Source of the DNA: a virus
Lineage: Duplodnaviria; Heunggongvirae; Uroviricota; Caudoviricetes
DNA length: 58,548 nucleotides
Virus record (IMG/VR): IMGVR_UViG_3300031555_007106
Direction: 5' to 3' (one strand)
The notes under the pieces are model-generated. The model searched no databases, was not told where the DNA came from, and saw nothing but the letters and a program-made list of their open reading frames with translations. Made by a program: the position numbers and the translations under genes. Shown piece after piece: positions 14,950 through 58,548 of the stretch (positions are counted from its first letter, which is position 1; each line of letters begins with the position of its first letter).

Positions 14950-15024
14950 TGGAGCAAGCAACGGGAATTGAACCCGCATTTCCTGCTTGGGAAGCAGATG
15001 TATTGACCATTATACGATACTTGC
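14950..15024 (-). tRNA. tRNA-Gly(CCC)
   Basis: GCAAGTA acceptor, TCTGC-TTCCCAA-GCAGG anticodon arm, GGTTCAATTCC T-loop, encoded CCA; 75 nt. Confidence 0.92.
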
Positions 15025-15049
15025 ATACCTTGCTATATTGTAAATTCGG

Positions 15050-15281
15050 CTTTACTATAGTGTAAATTCATACACCCCTAAAACCCAATATATGAGAGTG
15101 TTACAGCACTCCCAGCTTTACTATAGTGTAAATTCATACACCCCTAAATCTAATACATATCTTCGAGAATATTGTTCATTACTTTAGAATAGTGCAAATT
15201 CATACACCCCTAAAGTCCTTCAAAAGAAGATGTTGATATAATCAAACTTTAGAATAGTGTAAATTCATACACCTCTAAAGC
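15050..15281 (-). CRISPR. Mini-array A: 4 repeats, 3 spacers (30/31/31 nt), plus a repeat remnant at ~15030-15047
   Basis: 35-nt repeat, sense GCTTTAGAGGTGTATGAATTTACACTAT(AG/TC)TAAAG, at 15050, 15116, 15182 and 15247. Confidence 0.93.
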
Positions 15282-15441
15282 CTCAAATTCAGTTTTACAG
15301 TGTATGTTACACGTATAATCTCGTACGGACTACTAAGTACGAGGTTTTCTGACCTATAAAGGCCAACCTTTGCAAGAGTGGAACTCCGGCGTTAATAAAC
15401 GTCTTACAGGTCCTTCTCGCTCTAAGGGTGCAAAGCCACCC
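15282..15441 (-). ncRNA. tracrRNA-like element A (Cas12f type), fused to array A
   Basis: ~160-nt sequence conserved in six copies. 5' hairpin GGGTG-GCTTTG-CACCC, anti-repeat near the 3' end, ends ATTTGAG at the first repeat. Confidence 0.82.
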
Positions 15442-15464
15442 CGACTACGACTTTATGCCGCTAT

Positions 15465-15540
15465 TGGTTGGGATAGTGGGATTTGAACCCACAAAATCCT
15501 TATCATAACAACAAAACAAAATTATTATAACAGTATCCCA
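15465..15540 (-). pseudogene. tRNA-like element: intact acceptor stem, T-arm and CCA, with D/anticodon arms replaced by one AT-rich hairpin
   Basis: TGGGATA...GTGGG-TTCAAAT-CCCAC-TATCCCA-A-CCA; 76 nt. Confidence 0.75.
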
Positions 15541-15591
15541 ATATAATTTTTTGTTTATCTGCTAATGTTTTTCATCTTCATACTATATATT

Positions 15592-15713
15592 CTTTTACCT
15601 ATTCAGTATCTATACGGTCTACTATGTATAGAGTTAACCTTTGCAAGAGGATTTTTCAGCGTTTAAATAACGTCTTACGAAAATTGCCTCGCTCTGAGGG
15701 TGCAAAGCCACCC
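15592..15713 (-). ncRNA. Divergent, shortened tracrRNA-like copy with no array
   Basis: Keeps GGGTGGCTTTGCACCC, GAGCGAG, GTAAGACGTT and CTCTTGCAAAGG. Compensatory stem CTATAC/GTATAG. Lacks the anti-repeat. Confidence 0.7.
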
Positions 15714-15771
15714 ATAATTTATTCTACTTTATTATGCTTGCTTTACTACATTTGGAGAGTTATATTGCCCG

Positions 15772-16002
15772 CTTTACTATAGTGTAAATCCATATACCTC
15801 TAAAGCCCCTGAGGATAAACAAATAAGGGACGCATTACTTTAGAATAGTGTAAATTCATACACTTCTAAAGCGAATCCCCGATTTTCCGCTTTGTTATCG
15901 CTCTTTAGAATAGTGTAAATTCATACACCTCTAAAGCTGATGGGTAGTCAGCAATCCAATTGCCATACTTTAGAATAGTGTAAATCCATACGCCTCTAAA
16001 GC
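15772..16002 (-). CRISPR. Mini-array B: 4 repeats, 3 spacers (30/30/31 nt)
   Basis: Repeats at 15772, 15838, 15903 and 15968. Confidence 0.93.
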
Positions 16003-16162
16003 CTCAAATTCAGTTTTACAGTGTATGTTACACGTATAATCTCGTACGGACTACTAAGTACGAGGTTTTCTGACCTATAAAGGCCAACCTTTGCAAGAGT
16101 GGAACTCCGGCGTTAGCAAACGTCTTACGGGTCCTTCTCGCTCTGAGGGTGCAAAGCCACCC
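16003..16162 (-). ncRNA. tracrRNA-like element B
   Basis: Near-identical to element A; abuts the first repeat via ATTTGAG. Confidence 0.82.
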
Positions 16163-16185
16163 CGACTACGGCTTTATGCCGCTAT

Positions 16186-16372
16186 TGGTTGGAACAGCAG
16201 GTAGTAACCCTATATGTTCCAATATAAGAGAATGCTAACCACTCAGGTGAAAAAAAGGTGTGTTATGATACCTTATCAAGACCTGCCAAAGACATTCTCA
16301 TGCGACACCCTATGTGCCGCTTCCAAGCATAAATAGGAGCGTTGGCTACCCAACAGCAAAGTTAAACTATGC
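16186..16372 (-). ncRNA. Unrecognised structured RNA ending in a CCA-tipped minihelix (copy 1 of 3)
   Basis: Homologous to 53891-54066 and 57957-58155, with compensatory stem changes. Confidence 0.65.
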
Positions 16373-16465
16373 GAACTCGTATTAAACTTTGGTTTCAATG
16401 TGATTTCATAAAAAAACAATCACAAGTATTATAATAGTGCAAGCATTACAATACTTTTGTTGCAC

Positions 16466-16530
16466 ATATATAGTATGATAGAAAAAAATGTAAAAAAATA
16501 AACTTTTTCTTTTCATACACACATTTTTCT
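16466..16530 (-). promoter_or_regulatory. Extended promoter shared with the dCas12f gene and array E
   Basis: GTGTGT.....AAAAAGTTTAT-T-rich-TCATACTATAT; also at 21923-21990 (-) and 53736-53800 (+). Confidence 0.7.
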
Positions 16531-16533
16531 GTT

Positions 16534-16908
16534 TTACGATACATCGTCAGAAAGCACATAAGTATTTCCGTCAACTATAACAATTGGAACAGCTGTCGTA
16601 CTCTGTGTGACAGTATTTTCTTCACATACTTCTTCTGAAGTTTCAGTTTCTGTTTCTTTAGCTGATGTTGTTGCGATTTCTTCGCTAATGGTTGTTGATG
16701 TTGAATCAGTCAACAATCCCCCGGATGAAGTAGCATCTTCGTATAACGAGCGTATATAAGGAAAACAAAAAGTAATAATAAGGAAGATACATATTGCAAA
16801 CACAAGCATTGTAATTGCTATTTTGAGAACATCTTTTTGTTCTCCCAGTAGTATACCAAATAACACAACAACTACTGCCAAAACTCCCAAACCAATAAGA
16901 AATATCAT
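16534..16908 (-). CDS. Membrane protein with two N-terminal TM helices and a Thr/Glu-rich tail
   Basis: Hydrophobic segments followed by a low-complexity T/S/E region; RBS present. Confidence 0.7.
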   Translation of the reverse strand: MIFLIGLGVLAVVVVLFGILLGEQKDVLKIAITMLVFAICIFLIITFCFPYIRSLYEDATSSGGLLTDSTSTTISEEIATTSAKETETETSEEVCEENTVTQSTTAVPIVIVDGNTYVLSDDVS

Positions 16909-16919
16909 TTCTTCCTCCT

Positions 16920-18044
16920 TTAAATGGTTGTTGTTATTCCATTTACAGTTATATTGTCATCATCTATATCAACGACAATACACTTTCTTCCACCAACAGT
17001 TGCTACTCTCACTTTATTTGTTCCTGATTTTTTTATAGTAATTGTGACATCATCTATATTTACAACGGTTTTGGTTTCAATTAAATTAGTCGCGGTTAGT
17101 TCATTGTCACCAACGATTTCTTCATAAAGATTTGCAACTTCTTCAATTTTTTCATCCTTTACTCCAACTTTTTCGAGCATAGAACAAAGTTTATCGCCAT
17201 TAATAGTTGCAGGTTCCGCAGAATTTGGCTGCTTAGAAACAGAGTCTTCTATTTTCTCATTAAGCTGTGTAACAATTGTATAATCAAGGTCTTCTCCAAT
17301 CGCATCAGTTAGAATCTGTGCAAAAGCCATTTTCTCACCTTCCGCAGTCATTCTAAAAGAACAACCAAGAACATCTTCTACAATCGAACGATTAGGCTCT
17401 TTAGGTTTAGATGTATAGCAAAGCACCTGATTCACGTCCGGTTCACCATCGGTAAGCACAGGAAAAAGAATAGCGTCTGTAGGTCCTTTTGCAACCAAAC
17501 GGTCACTCTTGGGTCTCTTGCATATCTTATTGCTATCTTTGTCAACCATTAATGAGTCATCACAGTATGTAACCGGACAAATTACAGTAAGCAAGAAATC
17601 ATAATCTGTTGTATTATCCGTCTTTTCATCGTTCTTATCTTTAATAAATAAGGTATAGGTGCAGTGAGCTACAAACACGGTAAAAGCCTGATTATAATTA
17701 ATATTCTCTGTAATTCTGTTTAACAATCTTTCGTTACACTCCGAATCAGATAGTTTACCCTTATATACCTTATATAATACACTCTGAGAACCTGTTTCGT
17801 CATACATAGCCTTAGGAAAAGAATATTCCATAAGGTTCTTTCCAAGTGTTCCGCTTATTCCTTTCTTAAGCGTTTCAAGTATCAATTCCTTATCATCTTC
17901 CGGAATTACCCCAAACAGTTTAACGTCCTTGCTGACAACATTCTTCTTAGCATCAACAAACGCAGAAAGGACATTGTTGATAACAAAAAAGCCACTTTCT
18001 TCGTTAAAATTCTTTCTTAATGATGTTATTTCTTTCTTATTCAT
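16920..18044 (-). CDS. DUF4317 family protein
   Basis: Start MNKKEITSLRK; motifs FPVLTDGEPDVNQVLCY and MTAEGEKMAF resemble clostridial DUF4317 proteins. Start moved to 18044 based on the RBS. Confidence 0.75.
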   Translation of the reverse strand: MNKKEITSLRKNFNEESGFFVINNVLSAFVDAKKNVVSKDVKLFGVIPEDDKELILETLKKGISGTLGKNLMEYSFPKAMYDETGSQSVLYKVYKGKLSDSECNERLLNRITENINYNQAFTVFVAHCTYTLFIKDKNDEKTDNTTDYDFLLTVICPVTYCDDSLMVDKDSNKICKRPKSDRLVAKGPTDAILFPVLTDGEPDVNQVLCYTSKPKEPNRSIVEDVLGCSFRMTAEGEKMAFAQILTDAIGEDLDYTIVTQLNEKIEDSVSKQPNSAEPATINGDKLCSMLEKVGVKDEKIEEVANLYEEIVGDNELTATNLIETKTVVNIDDVTITIKKSGTNKVRVATVGGRKCIVVDIDDDNITVNGITTTI

Positions 18045-18078
18045 ATTTTTCTCCTTTTTCATTATAATATTTTTCACA

Positions 18079-18223
18079 TAGGTAAATTCATACACCCCTA
18101 AAGCATATTTACGGTATAGAATGCTCGGACTGATGCTTTACTATAATGTAAATTCATACACCTCTAAAACACTATATATAGAGAGGAGTTTTACTATAGT
18201 GTAAATTTATACACCTCTAAAGC
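18079..18223 (-). CRISPR. Mini-array C: 2 full repeats and 1 partial, spacers 18 and 31 nt
   Basis: Repeats at 18189 and 18136, partial at 18079-18104 running into the DUF4317 upstream region. Confidence 0.88.
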
Positions 18224-18382
18224 CTCAAATTCAGTTTTACAGTGTATATTACACATATAGTCTCGTACGGACTACTAAGTACGAGGTTTTCTGACCGTTA
18301 TGGTCAACCTTTGCAAGAGTGGAACTCCAGCGTTAGCAAACGTCTTACGGGTCCTTCTCGCTCTGAGGGTGCAAAGCCACCC
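18224..18382 (-). ncRNA. tracrRNA-like element C
   Basis: Conserved element with variant hairpin TGACC-ATAAC-GGTCA. Confidence 0.82.
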
Positions 18383-18497
18383 TTGTCAGGTAAATCTTTT
18401 AATAATGTCACAATATATTTGGAACGAACATGTTCTAATCCTTTTTTAACGGCATCTGCTTTATTTTCAGCGTTTATAGCGTTTTCCTTGCGTATTA

Positions 18498-20545: not shown

Positions 20546-21898
20546 TTAATCTTCGTTGTTTCCACTTGATTTCAAAAGTTCGTCAATATCCTTAATAAGA
20601 AGAGCCGGAAGAACATCCTTATCCGCATCAAAAACATGACCGCAAGAAGAACATTCATATGTCACAACATCTTCTTCTGTATGTCTTTCACAAGTTGCCG
20701 TCATACACTGAGAGCACCATTTTCTCAGGCCTTTGTATCCAACTTTAATGACCTTGATTCCGTGTTCCTTTGCCTTATATTCGATTTTCTGAGTTAAGTC
20801 AAAGTAAGACCAATCCTTTAAGTAAACATTCTTCTGAAGTTCAGATGACGCAAGTCCGGTTAAATCCTCAAGCTGAATAGTTCCGCAATTATTCTTGATA
20901 GCCCATTCAATGATAGCTCTTGAGTATCTGTGATTGACCGTATTTCTAAAATTCGTAACAGCTTCACTTATATGATTGCGAGCTGACATCTTTCTCTTGA
21001 ACCCTCTTCCAAGTCTTCCGTCCCCGCATAAGGGTGAATCCTTGTAAGCAGCTTGTCCTATGTTAGCACGTCTGGTCTCAATTCTATCACTGAATCTCTT
21101 GATTTCCTTCCCTTCAATTGTCATTACACGAGAAGAATTGCTGAATGCAGCCATAACAGCATTGTGTTCACCGATATGTACGCCCATAATATTTTCTGCA
21201 TCAAGCTCTGTATTAACATCCTTAGTGAATGTATAAGAAAGAAGAAGATACCACTTGCCATCTTCATATACAAGCTTACTTCCGGAAATCTTGTATTCTT
21301 TATCATAACATCTTTCAAGAATTGTCCATACCGAGTTTTTCGCCTTTGCCGGAGCGACCATTATAAACTTAAGACGGGTATCCTTGAGATTATACTTCTG
21401 CATTCCCTTTCTGGATAACAAAGAAAGAGTAACATACCAATCCTTGATACCACCGTTCGGCTCTTTATCAAAACTAATGGCAATGGATTTATTGTGAAGT
21501 TCCATAGGCATTCCTCTTCTGTAGGAAGGAATCGACATATCTCCTCTCAACATATCCTTTTCTCTTTTCTTGAATGTGTTCATTACATTCTGGATTACTG
21601 AACCGAGATTTCGTGTACTCTGAAGGCAGAATTCACCGCTCATTTCCCTATAAAGCAAGCTCTGAAGATTTGTACTGCTTCCGGTCATTTCTTTGATTTC
21701 ATCCTTTGTTTTAGGGTAATCGCCGTGTGTTTCCTTCCACTTAGCCTTAGCTCCATCATACTCCCAGATTAACTGAACTGCACGATTAGCGGCGTTTCGG
21801 GTTTCGTTCTGCAAATCCCATAACATTCGATTCAATTCCTTGAATTCGATGATGTCATCATTCACAGAGATTAACTTCAATTTTACTACTTTTGTCAT
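20546..21898 (-). CDS. cas12f: Cas12f/TnpB-family RNA-guided protein, predicted nuclease-dead (450 aa)
   Basis: Resembles AsCas12f1 as I recall it along its length (LRGDMSIPSYRR, YVTLSLLS, NFRNTVNHRYSR, CGTIQLEDL, DLTQKIEYKAKEHGIKV, CxxC..CxxC). RuvC-I reads MGVHIG instead of GxDxG. Start at 21898 behind AGGAGG. Confidence 0.88.
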   Translation of the reverse strand: MTKVVKLKLISVNDDIIEFKELNRMLWDLQNETRNAANRAVQLIWEYDGAKAKWKETHGDYPKTKDEIKEMTGSSTNLQSLLYREMSGEFCLQSTRNLGSVIQNVMNTFKKREKDMLRGDMSIPSYRRGMPMELHNKSIAISFDKEPNGGIKDWYVTLSLLSRKGMQKYNLKDTRLKFIMVAPAKAKNSVWTILERCYDKEYKISGSKLVYEDGKWYLLLSYTFTKDVNTELDAENIMGVHIGEHNAVMAAFSNSSRVMTIEGKEIKRFSDRIETRRANIGQAAYKDSPLCGDGRLGRGFKRKMSARNHISEAVTNFRNTVNHRYSRAIIEWAIKNNCGTIQLEDLTGLASSELQKNVYLKDWSYFDLTQKIEYKAKEHGIKVIKVGYKGLRKWCSQCMTATCERHTEEDVVTYECSSCGHVFDADKDVLPALLIKDIDELLKSSGNNED

Positions 21899-21996
21899 AA
21901 TAGACCTCCTAAATTTAAATTCTATATATAGTATGAAAGAAAAAACGTAAAAAAAATAAACTTTTTTTATTCTCACACACGTATTTTTAAAAAGCG

Positions 21997-22109: not shown

Positions 22110-22141
22110 AGAAAAAGAGCCCACGCGAGGCTCTTTTTTTA
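22110..22141. terminator. Bidirectional intrinsic terminator
   Basis: AAAAAGAGCC-CACGCGA-GGCTCTTTTTTT. Confidence 0.75.
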
Positions 22142-53173: not shown

Positions 53174-53345
53174 TTTTACTCTTTTAACAACATACGGACG
53201 GGAAACCTCGGTTATTTATAGTTGAGAAGTTCACACATAGCACATATCACATTTCAAAATTTAACATTTTATTCTATCATACTACAATTAAGAGGTGATA
53301 TAATTTTTGTCGAATTCCTCAAAAGGCATTTAATCATCTTGAAAC

Positions 53346-53506
53346 GGGTGGCTTTGCACCCTCAGAGCGAGAAGGACCTGTAAGACGTTTGCTAACGCTG
53401 GAGCTCCACTCTTGCAAAGGTTGACTTTTTGTAAGTCAGAAAACCTCGTACTTAGTAGTCCGTACGAGACTATATGTGTAATATACACTGTAAAACTGAA
53501 TTTGAG
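53346..53506 (+). ncRNA. tracrRNA-like element D
   Basis: Conserved element; a CATACTA promoter core lies at 53278-53284. Confidence 0.82.
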
Positions 53507-53718
53507 GCTTTAGAGGTGTATGAATTTACACTATAGTAAAGTATTGCCATGGTCTATGGGAAAGTAATAACGGCTTTAGAGGTGTATGAATTTACACTAT
53601 AGTAAAGTGGCCAGACCGTTGGATTCGCTGCTTTAGAGGTGTATGAATTTACATTATAGTAAAGATACGAATTCGTACATATAGCTTTAGAGGTGTATGG
53701 ATTTACACCATAGTAAAG
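53507..53718 (+). CRISPR. Mini-array D: 4 repeats, spacers 31/22/19 nt
   Basis: Repeats at 53507, 53573, 53630 and 53684. Confidence 0.93.
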
Positions 53719-53890
53719 TAAAGAGTAAAGCATATAAAAAATCGTGTGTGAGAATGAAAAAAGTTTATAATTTTTTTGTTTTTTTCTATCATACTAAATA
53801 TGTAGTCAGTTATGGTCTGCTTGTACTTTTTGTGCAGTGGATGATAAATTGAATAAAAATACATTTTATTCCAAGATTTAAGACGAGTGA

Positions 53891-54066
53891 GCATAGTTTA
53901 AATCTTGCGTTGGGTCAAGCCAACACTCCTATTTATGCTTGGAAGTGATACATAGGGTATCGCACGAGAATGTCTTTGGCAGAATTTTTACCTCCTTTAG
54001 CGATTCTGAGTGGTTAGCATTCTCTTATACTGGAACATATAGGGTCACTACCTGTTGTTTCATCCA
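53891..54066 (+). ncRNA. Unrecognised structured RNA ending in a CCA-tipped minihelix (copy 2)
   Basis: Homologous to 16186-16372, with covarying stems. Confidence 0.65.
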
Positions 54067-54089
54067 ATAGCGGTATAAAGCCGTAATCG

Positions 54090-54250
54090 GGGTGGCTTTG
54101 CACCCTCAGAGCGAGAAGGACCTGTAAGACGTTTGCTAACGCCGGAGTTCCACTCTTGCAAAGGTTGACTTTTTGTAAGTCAGAAAACCTCGTACTTAGT
54201 AGTCCGTACGAGACTATATGTGTAACACACACTAAAAACTGCATTTTGAG
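54090..54250 (+). ncRNA. tracrRNA-like element E
   Basis: Conserved element; ends TTTTGAG. Confidence 0.82.
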
Positions 54251-54546
54251 GCTTTAGGGGTGTATGAATTTACACTATAGCAAAGCGATTCGTCCTTTCT
54301 TTGTAAGGCGGGTAAGCTTAGGGGTGTATGAATTTACACTATAGTAAAGCGCTCCGCACTTTCCGCAGACGAGCAAGCCTGCTTTAGAGGTGTATGAATT
54401 TACACTATAGTAAAGCTTCAGGACAAAAGAGCCCTTCAGGCCTCGTGCTTTAGAGGTGTATGAATTTACACTATAGCAAAGCACACATATTGATAATCTG
54501 CAATAAATGCAGCTTTAGGGGTGTATGAATTTACACTATAGTAAAG
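54251..54546 (+). CRISPR. Mini-array E: 5 repeats, spacers 30/31/31/30 nt
   Basis: Repeats at 54251, 54316, 54381, 54447 and 54512. Confidence 0.95.
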
Positions 54547-55546: not shown

Positions 55547-57883
55547 TTGAACAACACAACGAAAAAAACAGCGGCAACCCTGATGAAAGCTTTTTCATTC
55601 GGGGTTTTATTATTTTTGGTATTCCTTATACCTACACTAATAAAGAATAATGGTTTATTTATAACAGACGGAGATTATCCATTCCAAAGCATCCCGTTTA
55701 CATATCACATAAGAGACTCGGTTTTCACAGGAAATGTTGTTTGGAATCACGCATCCGGATTTGGAGGACAGTTCTTATCTAATTATGCTTATTACAATTT
55801 GTGCAGTCCATTTACATTAATATATCTGATACTGCCAAGAAACTGGATTGTTTATGCTATGCCTTATATGGAAGCTGTAAAGTATGGTGTTGGTACAATG
55901 TTGGCCGCTCATTATATAAACAGATATGTAAGAAGTGATATGTATTCTATTGTAGGTGGTCTCACATATATGTTTTCCTCGTTCTCTGCTTACAATCTCG
56001 TATTTCATTTCTCTGACGCTATTGCTCTGTTTCCCTTACTTCTTATATCTATTGATGAACTGTGTATGAATAACAGAAGATGCGTTTTTGCATTAAGCTG
56101 TGCATTATTAGCGTACACCAACTATTATTTCTTTTTCGGGCAAGCAGTCTTTTTGGTGATATATTTCTTTACAAGGTATCTGAGTAAAGATAAAAGGTAT
56201 TTCTTCAAAAAACTCTGTGTTGTTGCCCTTGAGGCGGTTATAGGCGTTATGTTAGCAGCTCCCCTCCTGTTTCCTGTGCTTATTACTCTTTTAGATAGTG
56301 CGAAAGCCACCGCCACAATCAACATCTCAGATATGTTTATTTACAGCAATATCAATTATTATTTAAAGATAATACAGGGTGCGTTTATGATTCCTGACCA
56401 GTTCGGATGTATTTCTTACTTCCCGGCAGTAGAAAGTCAATATCCTTTCGGAACTGTTATTGGTTCGGTAGCTTCATACATACCTTTTTTTTCTGTTGCA
56501 GGCGTATTATCTTATATATACGTGAGGAGAGGAAGTCGTTTTAGTGCTCTGCTTACAATCTGCGGAATAATGGCACTTATTCCTATAGGTAATCAACTAT
56601 TCTCGGGACTCAATACTTCCTTTTATGCCAGATGGTATTATATGCCTATACTTATAGCGTCTCTTGTTTCTGTCAAAGCTCTTCAAGACGGAATAAGCTT
56701 TAATTACGGTATAGGAGTATGTTCCTTGTTTGTTGCAGCAATTGCAATAAAGCTGAATTATGGGTACTCAGCGGATGAAATAAAGGCTTATGTTTCTGAA
56801 ACCATGGAAATAACTTTTAATAATACATCTGAGATACTGAATCAGATTTATATTCTTATTACAATTTTCGGTTTACTTTCTTTGATGCTTGTTACTGCGT
56901 TAAGAAAGAAAAAGATATTCAATGTGGTATTTGGAGCTGTATTTTTTGTTAATGTTCTCTCAAGTTACGGTATTACTTATTACACTGCAGTAACTGTAGG
57001 TCCCGAAAAAGACATATATGAAAAGAATATGGCTATTGAAGAATATTCAGAGGATTTCAGTACAACAGACAGAGTACTGTTCACAGCAAATGAGACTTCT
57101 AATCTCAGTTTGTACTACGGATTAAGTTCTATTGATTATTTTAATTCTCTTACAGATGCAGGATTTCAACGTTTCCTTACAGAAAATGGTTTAGTAGAAA
57201 ATACCGGAGTCAACACTCCGATTGATGAAGAGAGTCTTCCTGTCTGTGATATAACTTCGGTTAAGTATTTCTATACATCGCCAAAAGATGAAGAAAATTC
57301 TGTTTACTTATCGCCTGTGTACGAATATGAGATTGTAGGGAAATTAGGAAGAATGGATATCAGAGAAAATCCTAACTACGTTCCTATGGGGCTTACCTAT
57401 GACTACATGATTACTTACGAAGATTTTTCAAAGATAGAAAATAAAGAAGATAGATGGAAAGTGTATATGAGTTATCTGGTCGTAGACAATCCGGACGATT
57501 TTGTTGATGTACTCAGCCTTTATAAGGGAGATATAAATACGGAGGATTATAAAGATGCAGTTTTGGAACGTCGCCAAAGCTGTGCGTATTACTCTGAATA
57601 CACAAAAGATGGTCTTGTATCTCATATAGACGTTGACGCGCCTGAATTGGTATTTTTCTCTGTTTCTTATAATGATAGCTGGAGAGCTTACGTTGACGGC
57701 AAGGAGCAACAAGTGTATGAAGTTAACAATGGACTTATCGGAGTGAAGGTACCTGAAGGCGACCACGAAATACGACTTGTTTATTCAGTGAAAGGCTTTA
57801 CAGTAGGATGCGTTGCTTCTTTTGCAGGAGTTGTAATTCTTATTGTTGTTAAAATCGTATGTGAGAATAAAAAAGAGCGTTAA
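55547..57883 (+). CDS. YfhO-family multi-pass membrane protein (GT-C-type glycosyltransferase)
   Basis: TTG start; GDYPFQSIPF, YYNLCSPF, many TM helices, and the C-terminal FFSVSYNDSWRAYVDGK..NNGLIGVKVPEGDHEIRLVY typical of YfhO. Confidence 0.85.
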   Translation: MNNTTKKTAATLMKAFSFGVLLFLVFLIPTLIKNNGLFITDGDYPFQSIPFTYHIRDSVFTGNVVWNHASGFGGQFLSNYAYYNLCSPFTLIYLILPRNWIVYAMPYMEAVKYGVGTMLAAHYINRYVRSDMYSIVGGLTYMFSSFSAYNLVFHFSDAIALFPLLLISIDELCMNNRRCVFALSCALLAYTNYYFFFGQAVFLVIYFFTRYLSKDKRYFFKKLCVVALEAVIGVMLAAPLLFPVLITLLDSAKATATINISDMFIYSNINYYLKIIQGAFMIPDQFGCISYFPAVESQYPFGTVIGSVASYIPFFSVAGVLSYIYVRRGSRFSALLTICGIMALIPIGNQLFSGLNTSFYARWYYMPILIASLVSVKALQDGISFNYGIGVCSLFVAAIAIKLNYGYSADEIKAYVSETMEITFNNTSEILNQIYILITIFGLLSLMLVTALRKKKIFNVVFGAVFFVNVLSSYGITYYTAVTVGPEKDIYEKNMAIEEYSEDFSTTDRVLFTANETSNLSLYYGLSSIDYFNSLTDAGFQRFLTENGLVENTGVNTPIDEESLPVCDITSVKYFYTSPKDEENSVYLSPVYEYEIVGKLGRMDIRENPNYVPMGLTYDYMITYEDFSKIENKEDRWKVYMSYLVVDNPDDFVDVLSLYKGDINTEDYKDAVLERRQSCAYYSEYTKDGLVSHIDVDAPELVFFSVSYNDSWRAYVDGKEQQVYEVNNGLIGVKVPEGDHEIRLVYSVKGFTVGCVASFAGVVILIVVKIVCENKKER

Positions 57884-57956
57884 GTTTTGCGATTTATTCT
57901 TTCATACTATATATGTAAGAGTTAAAATCTTGCATTGTCCAAAACACTTGCGAGTT

Positions 57957-58155
57957 TGCATAGCTGTGTTTTGGTTTCAGATGTTTTTTCTTTTCATCTG
58001 ATACATCCCATATGCTTGGAAGTGGCACATAGGGTGTCGCATGAGAATGTCTTTGGCAGGTCTTGATAAGGTATCATAACACACCTTTTTCCGCCTGAGT
58101 GGTTAGCATTCTTTTATACTGGAACATATAGGGTCACTACCTGTTATTTCAACCA
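57957..58155 (+). ncRNA. Unrecognised structured RNA ending in a CCA-tipped minihelix (copy 3)
   Basis: Homologous to the other two copies; a CATACTATAT promoter core lies at 57903. Confidence 0.62.
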
Positions 58156-58178
58156 ATAGCGGCATAAAGCCGTAGTCG

Positions 58179-58339
58179 GGGTGGCTTTGCACCCTCAGAG
58201 CGAGAAGGACCTGTAAGACGTTTGCTAACGCCGGAGTTCCACTCTTGCAAAGGTTGGCTTTTTGTAAGTCAGAAAACCTCGTACTTAGTAGTCCGTACGA
58301 GACTATATGTGTAACATACACTGTAAAACTGAATTTGAG
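58179..58339 (+). ncRNA. tracrRNA-like element F
   Basis: Conserved element ending ATTTGAG. Confidence 0.82.
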
Positions 58340-58548
58340 GCTTTAGAGGTGTATGAATTTACACTATAGTAAAGCTCGGTAGGCACAGTGCTAACTGCGC
58401 CCAAGGCTTTAGGGGTGTATGAATTTACACTATGGTAAAGCTATCAGCAGTTTGTATACACTTTAGAGATGTATGGATTTACACTATAGTAAAGCCTCTT
58501 ATATTTTTTCAAGACAAAATGAAGCTTTAGAGGTGTATGAATTTACAC
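58340..58548 (+). CRISPR. Mini-array F, truncated by the window end: at least 4 repeats, spacers 31/19/29 nt
   Basis: Repeats at 58340, 58406, 58460 and 58524 (partial). Confidence 0.92.

Follow-up and report, generated by a model that had tools for sequence, protein, structure and literature searches.

A Cas12f1-Lineage Protein with Histidine at RuvC-I, Probably a Nuclease-Inactive RNA-Guided DNA Binder, on Mobile Elements of Gut Clostridia

Results and Discussion

We analyzed a stretch of viral DNA of 58,548 nt, hereafter the window, whose minus-strand gene at 20546..21898 encodes a Cas12f homolog with histidine in place of the RuvC-I aspartate. This protein is probably a natural nuclease-inactive RNA-guided DNA binder of the Cas12f1 lineage, which takes its guides from the element's own cassettes and silences without cutting. 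What the analysis established directly is that the protein is a Cas12f homolog, that the substitution is present and kept across the clade by purifying selection, and that there are RNA cassettes whose structures covary.

The Gene and Its Active Site

The open reading frame translates into 450 amino acids free of stops, with the RuvC triad H241-E344-D426 and a retained zinc ribbon. RuvC-I reads IMGVHIG and contains His241, RuvC-II reads IQLEDL with Glu344, and RuvC-III reads FDADKD with Asp426; both CxxC pairs of the zinc ribbon are present (395/398 and 416/419). TSQRC of the relatives has become LRKWC, and the NAxxNI context of their RuvC-III has become DVLPAL. When the clade profile was aligned to 7wju_A and counted along its native numbering, His241 fell opposite position 225 of AsCas12f1, Glu344 opposite E324, and Asp426 opposite D401. 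Position 225 is Ala in 7wju (IMGIALG), a deposited dead mutant, and Asp (D225) in 8j12 (IMGIDLG). The initial annotation had described a RuvC-I change from Asp to His, acidic residues retained at RuvC-II and RuvC-III, altered TSQRC and NAxxNI contexts, and a full-length frame with zinc-finger cysteines; translation and alignment bear out this description throughout.

We also considered the Arg of TSQRC as the catalytic Arg, and this candidate was dropped. By count along 7wju it lies at 371, whereas the catalytic Arg of AsCas12f is R383; thus, no functional conclusion is drawn from the change of TSQRC to LRKWC.

Judged by its sequence, the protein is a Cas12f homolog of the AsCas12f1/OsCas12f1 lineage. 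It matched Pfam PF07282, the Cas12f1-like TNB domain (5e-10), and NCBIfam guided_TnpB above the cut-off (1e-34), with a weaker match to Cas12f2. The clade profile searched against PDB found AsCas12f first (E ~1e-110) and OsCas12f next (7.5e-102). An AlphaFold2 model built on 48 homologs had a mean pLDDT of 85, and Foldseek matched this predicted structure best to AsCas12f ternary complexes (TM 0.69-0.75), followed by OsCas12f and SpCas12f1. The alignment and the predicted structure agree with the earlier view of a Cas12f homolog whose fold is intact. In sum, the protein has the TnpB/Cas12 fold with a RuvC domain split by the TNB zinc ribbon, a length within the 400-550 aa of Cas12f, characterized Cas12f1 proteins as its closest relatives, and a CRISPR array with a tracrRNA that pairs with the repeat. 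It departs from Cas12f in its RuvC triad, which is H-E-D instead of an intact D-E-D, and in the missing RuvC-III context. A TnpB within an IS element was rejected, as there is no TnpA and no omegaRNA at the 3' end of the gene.

Upstream of the gene, also on the minus strand, we found an AGGAGG ribosome-binding site (21910-21905, 6 nt before the ATG), a promoter-like box TTTCATACTATATATAG (21938-21922), and a terminator-like hairpin that closes the upstream unit (22112..22138); the first two are consensus matches. The core box TCATACTAT has nine minus-strand copies in the window, one of them at 21936 upstream of the gene. From these signals the gene seems to open its own transcription unit, which accords with the strong ribosome-binding site and separate promoter proposed for it initially.

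Conservation of the Histidine and Selection

We searched for homologs over 5.8 billion proteins and found about 50 clusters at 42-67% identity, followed by a drop to 40% or less. The group with His at RuvC-I comprises at least 55 homologs that are 42-67% identical. In the alignment of its members (P0002-P0050), RuvC-I reads MGVHI[AG] throughout with the exception of one Asn, and the Glu of IQxEDL and Asp345 are invariant across the clade. The NAxxNI context is absent at RuvC-III of this close group, and the distant group shows the canonical GVDLG, TSQRC, and NADYNAxxNI.

A maximum-likelihood tree of 95 proteins placed the His group in a single clade (SH-aLRT 100, stem 0.72). His occupies RuvC-I in 55 of its 56 members, and the remaining one is a nested Asn. 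The triads in the clade are HED (43), HEN (10), and HEE (1); that is, Asp426 is kept in 43/55 members and RuvC-III carries Asn or Glu in 11/55. The sister of the His clade is a DED/NED group from gut Clostridia, and the DED proteins of Bacillales lie outside both.

To gauge selection, we compared coding sequences from 14 members of the clade. The dN/dS was 0.03-0.07 overall, and pairs with unsaturated dS gave 0.068, 0.055, and 0.070. The His codon was CAT in 13 of these sequences and CAC in one. Contigs of other samples contain the window gene at about 99% identity; 3 of its 450 amino acids differ, and the His codon is not among the listed changes. These results indicate that His at RuvC-I is maintained by selection across the clade and is no isolated lesion.

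Loss of one catalytic residue could also be a sign of a gene that is decaying or has no function. However, at least 55 diverged homologs keep full-length frames, dN/dS is low, and the His itself is conserved; a pseudogene is excluded on these grounds, and the chance that the gene is decaying or functionless is negligible. The initial annotation, too, had argued against decay, and the low dN/dS values agree with it.

The rest of the active site of the clade appears to be eroding, to judge from the Asn or Glu at RuvC-III. Together with the loss of the RuvC-III context, this counts against two-metal catalysis.

The RuvC-I Asp is missing elsewhere as well. Among the best 150 representatives at 50% identity, about 25 carry H, Y, F, Q, R, K, N, or other residues at this position (P0122-P0269), so inactivation appears recurrent in this neighborhood. 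The xIGExNA context of the His clade is also present in some of the Y and F forms, and P0126 (482 aa) resembles a deep member of the His lineage. A separate Cas12f1-like NED lineage, with Asn at RuvC-I, occurs on large phage contigs (L001-L003, L022, and L063; the first four are IMG/VR contigs of 92-177 kb). It also has dispersed cassettes of scaffold and mini-array, in contrast to the single long array of DED relatives.

Guide-RNA Cassettes

Comparison of the flanks of homolog loci revealed a conserved, non-coding stretch of some 150-160 nt, the scaffold, which is present in several copies per locus. The window has six, three per strand, and each runs straight into about 3-5 copies of a 34-nt repeat, CTTTAGAGGTGTATGAATTTACACTATAGTAAAG, with unique spacers of 19-32 nt (about 19-21 in the window). 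The scaffold copies begin at 53346, 54090, and 58179 on the plus strand and at 18382, 16162, and 15441 on the minus strand. On the minus strand are cassette A (15050..15443; scaffold and 4 repeats, between tRNA-Asn and tRNA-Gly), cassette B (15772..16164; scaffold and 4 repeats), and cassette C (18070..18384; scaffold at 18384-18223, two repeats, and one degenerate repeat). On the plus strand are cassette D (53344..53718; scaffold and 4 repeats), cassette E (54088..54546; scaffold and 5 repeats), and cassette F (58177..58548; scaffold and at least 3 repeats), which passes the window end. Repeat matches numbered 20 in the window and 0 in shuffles. At each of the 15 clade loci examined, 1-5 cassettes of this kind lie on the strand of the gene; most loci have 2-6.

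An alignment of 21 scaffolds from 13 loci gave a consensus structure of 31 pairs, 22 of which show compensatory changes. Paired scaffold cells amounted to 96%, against 80% in shuffled alignments and 31-48% with the partners slid. The 3' part of the scaffold is an anti-repeat that forms a helix with the 3' half of the repeat, and compensatory changes were found in 6/6 of its pairs. The covariation of both structures points to the tracrRNA:crRNA architecture of Cas12f. Rfam has no family that matches the scaffold.

Cassette C shares its apparent transcription unit with the cas12f gene. Cassettes B and A, together with tRNA-Asn and tRNA-Gly, make up a non-coding unit. Cassette A begins 24 nt downstream of tRNA-Asn, and 25 nt lie between its last repeat and tRNA-Gly (window 14950-15540); tRNA processing may be a route by which its tracr-array transcript is released. 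A leader of some 250 nt, which follows a TCTATCATACTAT box, is common to cassettes B, E, and F, and its last ~170 nt are nearly identical (16161-16500 on the minus strand, 53760-54091 and 57850-58180 on the plus strand). The shared leader matched nothing in Rfam and did not fold significantly (z = −0.96).

In contigs of other samples (X1, X2, X4, and X5; window 15000-18300), repeats are joined by spacer-length sequences that are absent from the window, one of which, ATATGAACAACTGCATTTTTAT, was found in three runs. These are either from further arrays elsewhere in the element or a sign of strain-variable spacer content. At another locus (L053 3794-3820 and 4088-4111), a ~25-nt palindromic motif directly precedes the scaffolds; more copies are present at several further sites of this element contig (G004:C12).

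The DED relatives have a single homologous scaffold (GGGCGACTCGGCGTCC...CGAGA...) and one long array directly behind the gene. Thus, the fusion of tracr and array appears ancestral, and what is new in the dead clade is, as far as the loci can be read, the multiplied and scattered scaffold-array unit.

These relatives also bear on a different explanation, an anti-CRISPR decoy, in which the dead Cas12f would poison the Cas12f1 of the host through mixed dimers or by soaking up its tracr/crRNA. Gut Oscillospiraceae and Ruminococcus MAGs do have active-looking DED Cas12f1 systems with homologous scaffolds, AsCas12f was deposited as a two-chain complex, and crRNA sequestration has been proposed for a phage Cas9 with inactivated RuvC (PMC11656645). 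However, the clade keeps multiple cassettes of its own, whose repeats co-vary with their own anti-repeats, and its identity to the DED relatives is only 36-40%. A decoy is therefore quite improbable.

The Mobile Element, Its Hosts, and Neighboring Genes

The window has a GC content of 35%, and nearly all of its genes are small, of unassigned function, and on one strand. It also encodes NrdD, a DNA methyltransferase, a tail-like protein, DUF4317, and the two tRNAs. No phage matched 20 kb of the window in a megablast search. Contigs of the clade carry ParA/ParB, ERF, SNase, HEPN, YodL, ArdC-N/Toprim, DUF4316, GGDEF, and a giant SNF2-helicase protein, and a context of this kind looks phage-, plasmid-, or conjugative-element-like.

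In GTDB, the clade was found in gut and rumen MAGs labeled Oscillospiraceae, Ruminococcus, Clostridia, and Bacillota, and in one labeled Prevotella. At least 10 metagenome runs from animal gut or faeces have contigs with the window's stretch (20 holders from 15 studies); no RNA run containing it was found.

Among the loci examined, no protein neighbor is conserved between loci, and no cas1, cas2, cas4, or tnpA is among the annotated neighbors. At one locus, a Sigma70_r4/RNAP alpha-CTD-like gene lies directly upstream of the His-clade gene (L049 4098-4703), and at another an RNase H gene lies directly downstream (L042 2310-2909); neither is conserved across loci. The protein could be imagined as an RNA-guided recruitment platform that directs another activity to its targets, for example that of a sigma factor or RNA polymerase, a recombinase, or a helicase. 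Precedents are dCas12f-sigmaE and Cas12k (PMC13472631, PMC11656645), and the sigma-like gene at the one locus would suit this role. Without a partner that recurs across the loci, we give recruitment very little credence.

Spacer Targets

In the window, no protospacer was found with 20-nt seeds allowing up to 4 mismatches or with exact 12-14-mers, and 12-mers matched at chance level only. The first spacer of cassette C (19 nt; 18170-18188) shares 12 nt, TCTATATATAGT, with the cas12f promoter box (21921-21932); this is low-complexity sequence, and the match is at chance level. We searched INPHARED phages and PLSDB plasmids with the array regions by blastn, IMG/VR with exact 22-24-mers taken from six spacers, four of the window and two of homolog loci, and JGI metagenome contigs with one spacer, and none of these searches returned a protospacer. 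The same was true of 401 genomes of the family of G001, an Oscillospiraceae MAG containing one of the loci (L051), in which two candidates were scored per genome. Five host MAGs searched with the arrays of two loci (L053 and L054) gave only matches to cassettes and palindromes on the same element contig. Several spacers have a GC content of 56-66%, far above that of the element, which points away from self-targeting.

Proposed Mechanism

The events that we propose for the dead binder are as follows. A large phage- or plasmid-like element of gut or rumen Clostridia would carry the gene, and the effector would be loaded with guides from the cassettes of tracrRNA-like scaffold and mini-CRISPR array; by analogy with AsCas12f, it is probably dimeric. 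On finding complementary DNA it would form an R-loop and stay bound, and so block the transcription or replication of the target with no cut. The loss of cleavage, the binding of DNA, the role of the His, and targets in rival elements or host genes are what we infer.

Cas12m2 gives the closest precedent and the best mechanistic model. Its first RuvC Asp is His317, which binds only Mg(A) and, with Asp579, holds the non-target strand; this protein, with an HDD site, does not cleave DNA and silences by tight binding, and other Cas12m clades have HEK or HQK triads (PMC10442227). Reversion of the Cas12m2 site to DED did not bring back cleavage. By analogy, the His, the Glu, and the mostly retained Asp of the window protein most likely act as a one-metal clamp on the non-target strand. 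The strict His, the invariant Glu, and an Asp or Asn that is mostly kept would fit a comparable clamp. The initial annotation had read the protein as selected for binding rather than cutting; selection is supported, and binding without cutting we infer from the Cas12m2 model.

A rival explanation is that the protein is still a nuclease, its H-E-D site cleaving DNA or RNA with another metal or chemistry, in ordinary interference, or processing its own tracr-array transcripts. Residual or altered activity is conceivable, given metal ligation by His, the invariant Glu344, and an Asp426 that is mostly kept; the invariant Asp345, the strong purifying selection, and arrays with unique spacers, which are typical of interference, also speak for it. 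To our knowledge, however, every active RuvC/RNase H-like site has the RuvC-I Asp. The Asn or Glu at RuvC-III and the lost NAxxNI context are further points against a nuclease, and the active sister group retains canonical DED (on the tree, the sister is DED/NED). Cas12c and Cas12j do process pre-crRNA with RuvC, and Cas12m2, with the same His, leaves DNA uncut (PMC10442227). Taken together, it is unlikely that the window protein remains a nuclease.

In another, joint reading, the ring-bearing residue at RuvC-I is a gained function, which together with the multiplied cassettes, interleaved with tRNAs, would allow a large mobile element to silence host or rival genes with many guides. The residue may serve as a non-target-strand or base-stacking clamp that locks the R-loop, or as a general base for RNA processing, and the protein might also poison the dimeric Cas12f of the host. 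This reading is based on the strictly kept His in the clade and on the Tyr or Phe in related lineages with xIGExNA. We regard it as possible but doubtful.

Comparison with Known Systems

The type V-F1 miniature nucleases AsCas12f1 and OsCas12f1 resemble the window protein in lineage, size, fold, and zinc ribbon. In them, too, the array is preceded by and fused to a long tracrRNA-like scaffold that contains an anti-repeat, and adaptation genes are absent. They differ from the window protein, which has His at RuvC-I and has lost the RuvC-III context and TSQRC; and whereas they have one scaffold and one long array, here several cassettes are dispersed, on mobile elements.

Cas12m2 (type V-M) likewise has His for the first RuvC Asp, is encoded on mobile elements, and lacks adaptation genes (PMC10442227). 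However, it is not a close relative: we found a marginal C-terminal match to UnCas12m4a (E 0.005) and Foldseek TM values of 0.45-0.50. Cas12m proteins have about 600 aa, a REC2 insertion, and a crRNA without tracrRNA, with an H-D-D site in Cas12m2, whereas the window protein has H-E-D and a tracr-like scaffold. In sequence, structure, and the use of crRNA only, it is not a member of the Cas12m family.

The dCas12f-sigmaE proteins and the CRISPR-associated dCas12f of Bacteroidota are, like the proposed window binder, nuclease-dead RNA-guided DNA binders derived from Cas12f (PMC13472631), and the modeled window protein matches the fold of 9n9c (TMq 0.55 / TMt 0.69). These proteins are C-terminally truncated (~365 aa), have lost RuvC-III and the zinc finger, are linked to rpoE/HTH genes, and belong to Bacteroidota (PMC13472631). 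In contrast, the window protein is full length with both CxxC pairs, has no rpoE beside its gene and no conserved partner, and is found on mobile elements of Clostridia; it does not belong to dCas12f-sigmaE.

TldR is, as proposed for the window protein, a dead TnpB-family repressor, domesticated, often phage-borne, and guided by an RNA of scaffold plus 3' guide (bioRxiv 10.1101/2023.11.30.569447). TldRs have single short guides beside the gene and originated directly from transposon TnpB (bioRxiv 10.1101/2023.11.30.569447), whereas the window protein derives from a CRISPR-associated Cas12f1 and its arrays have spacers of 19-32 nt. Although its RuvC site is altered, CRISPR-type arrays and the lack of a conserved partner gene set it apart from TldR.

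Natural dead binders of the Cas12/TnpB type are already established, namely Cas12k, Cas12m, TldR, dCas12f-sigmaE, and the Bacteroidota CRISPR-associated dCas12f cluster. Altae-Tran et al. mentioned Cas12f branches with altered catalytic sites, giving no detail (PMC10691335). In the literature that we searched, which covers part of the journals, neither this clade of full-length Cas12f1 proteins with an H-E-D triad, carried by Clostridia mobile elements, nor the multi-cassette layout is described.

Significance

The clade would be an independent, Cas12f1-derived addition to the natural dead RNA-guided DNA binders such as Cas12m, Cas12k, TldR, and dCas12f-sigmaE. Cas12m2 has the very same change from Asp to His, so the two appear to have converged, a hint that selection favors His as a way to hold DNA and leave it intact. 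The difference between one long array in active systems and many small cassettes in dead ones may show how the guide locus is reorganized when an effector turns into a regulator. With 450 aa and genome-editing nucleases as its closest characterized relatives, the protein could serve as a natural miniature scaffold for CRISPRi. The reading would also mean that programmable silencing systems are found on large mobile elements of gut Clostridia.
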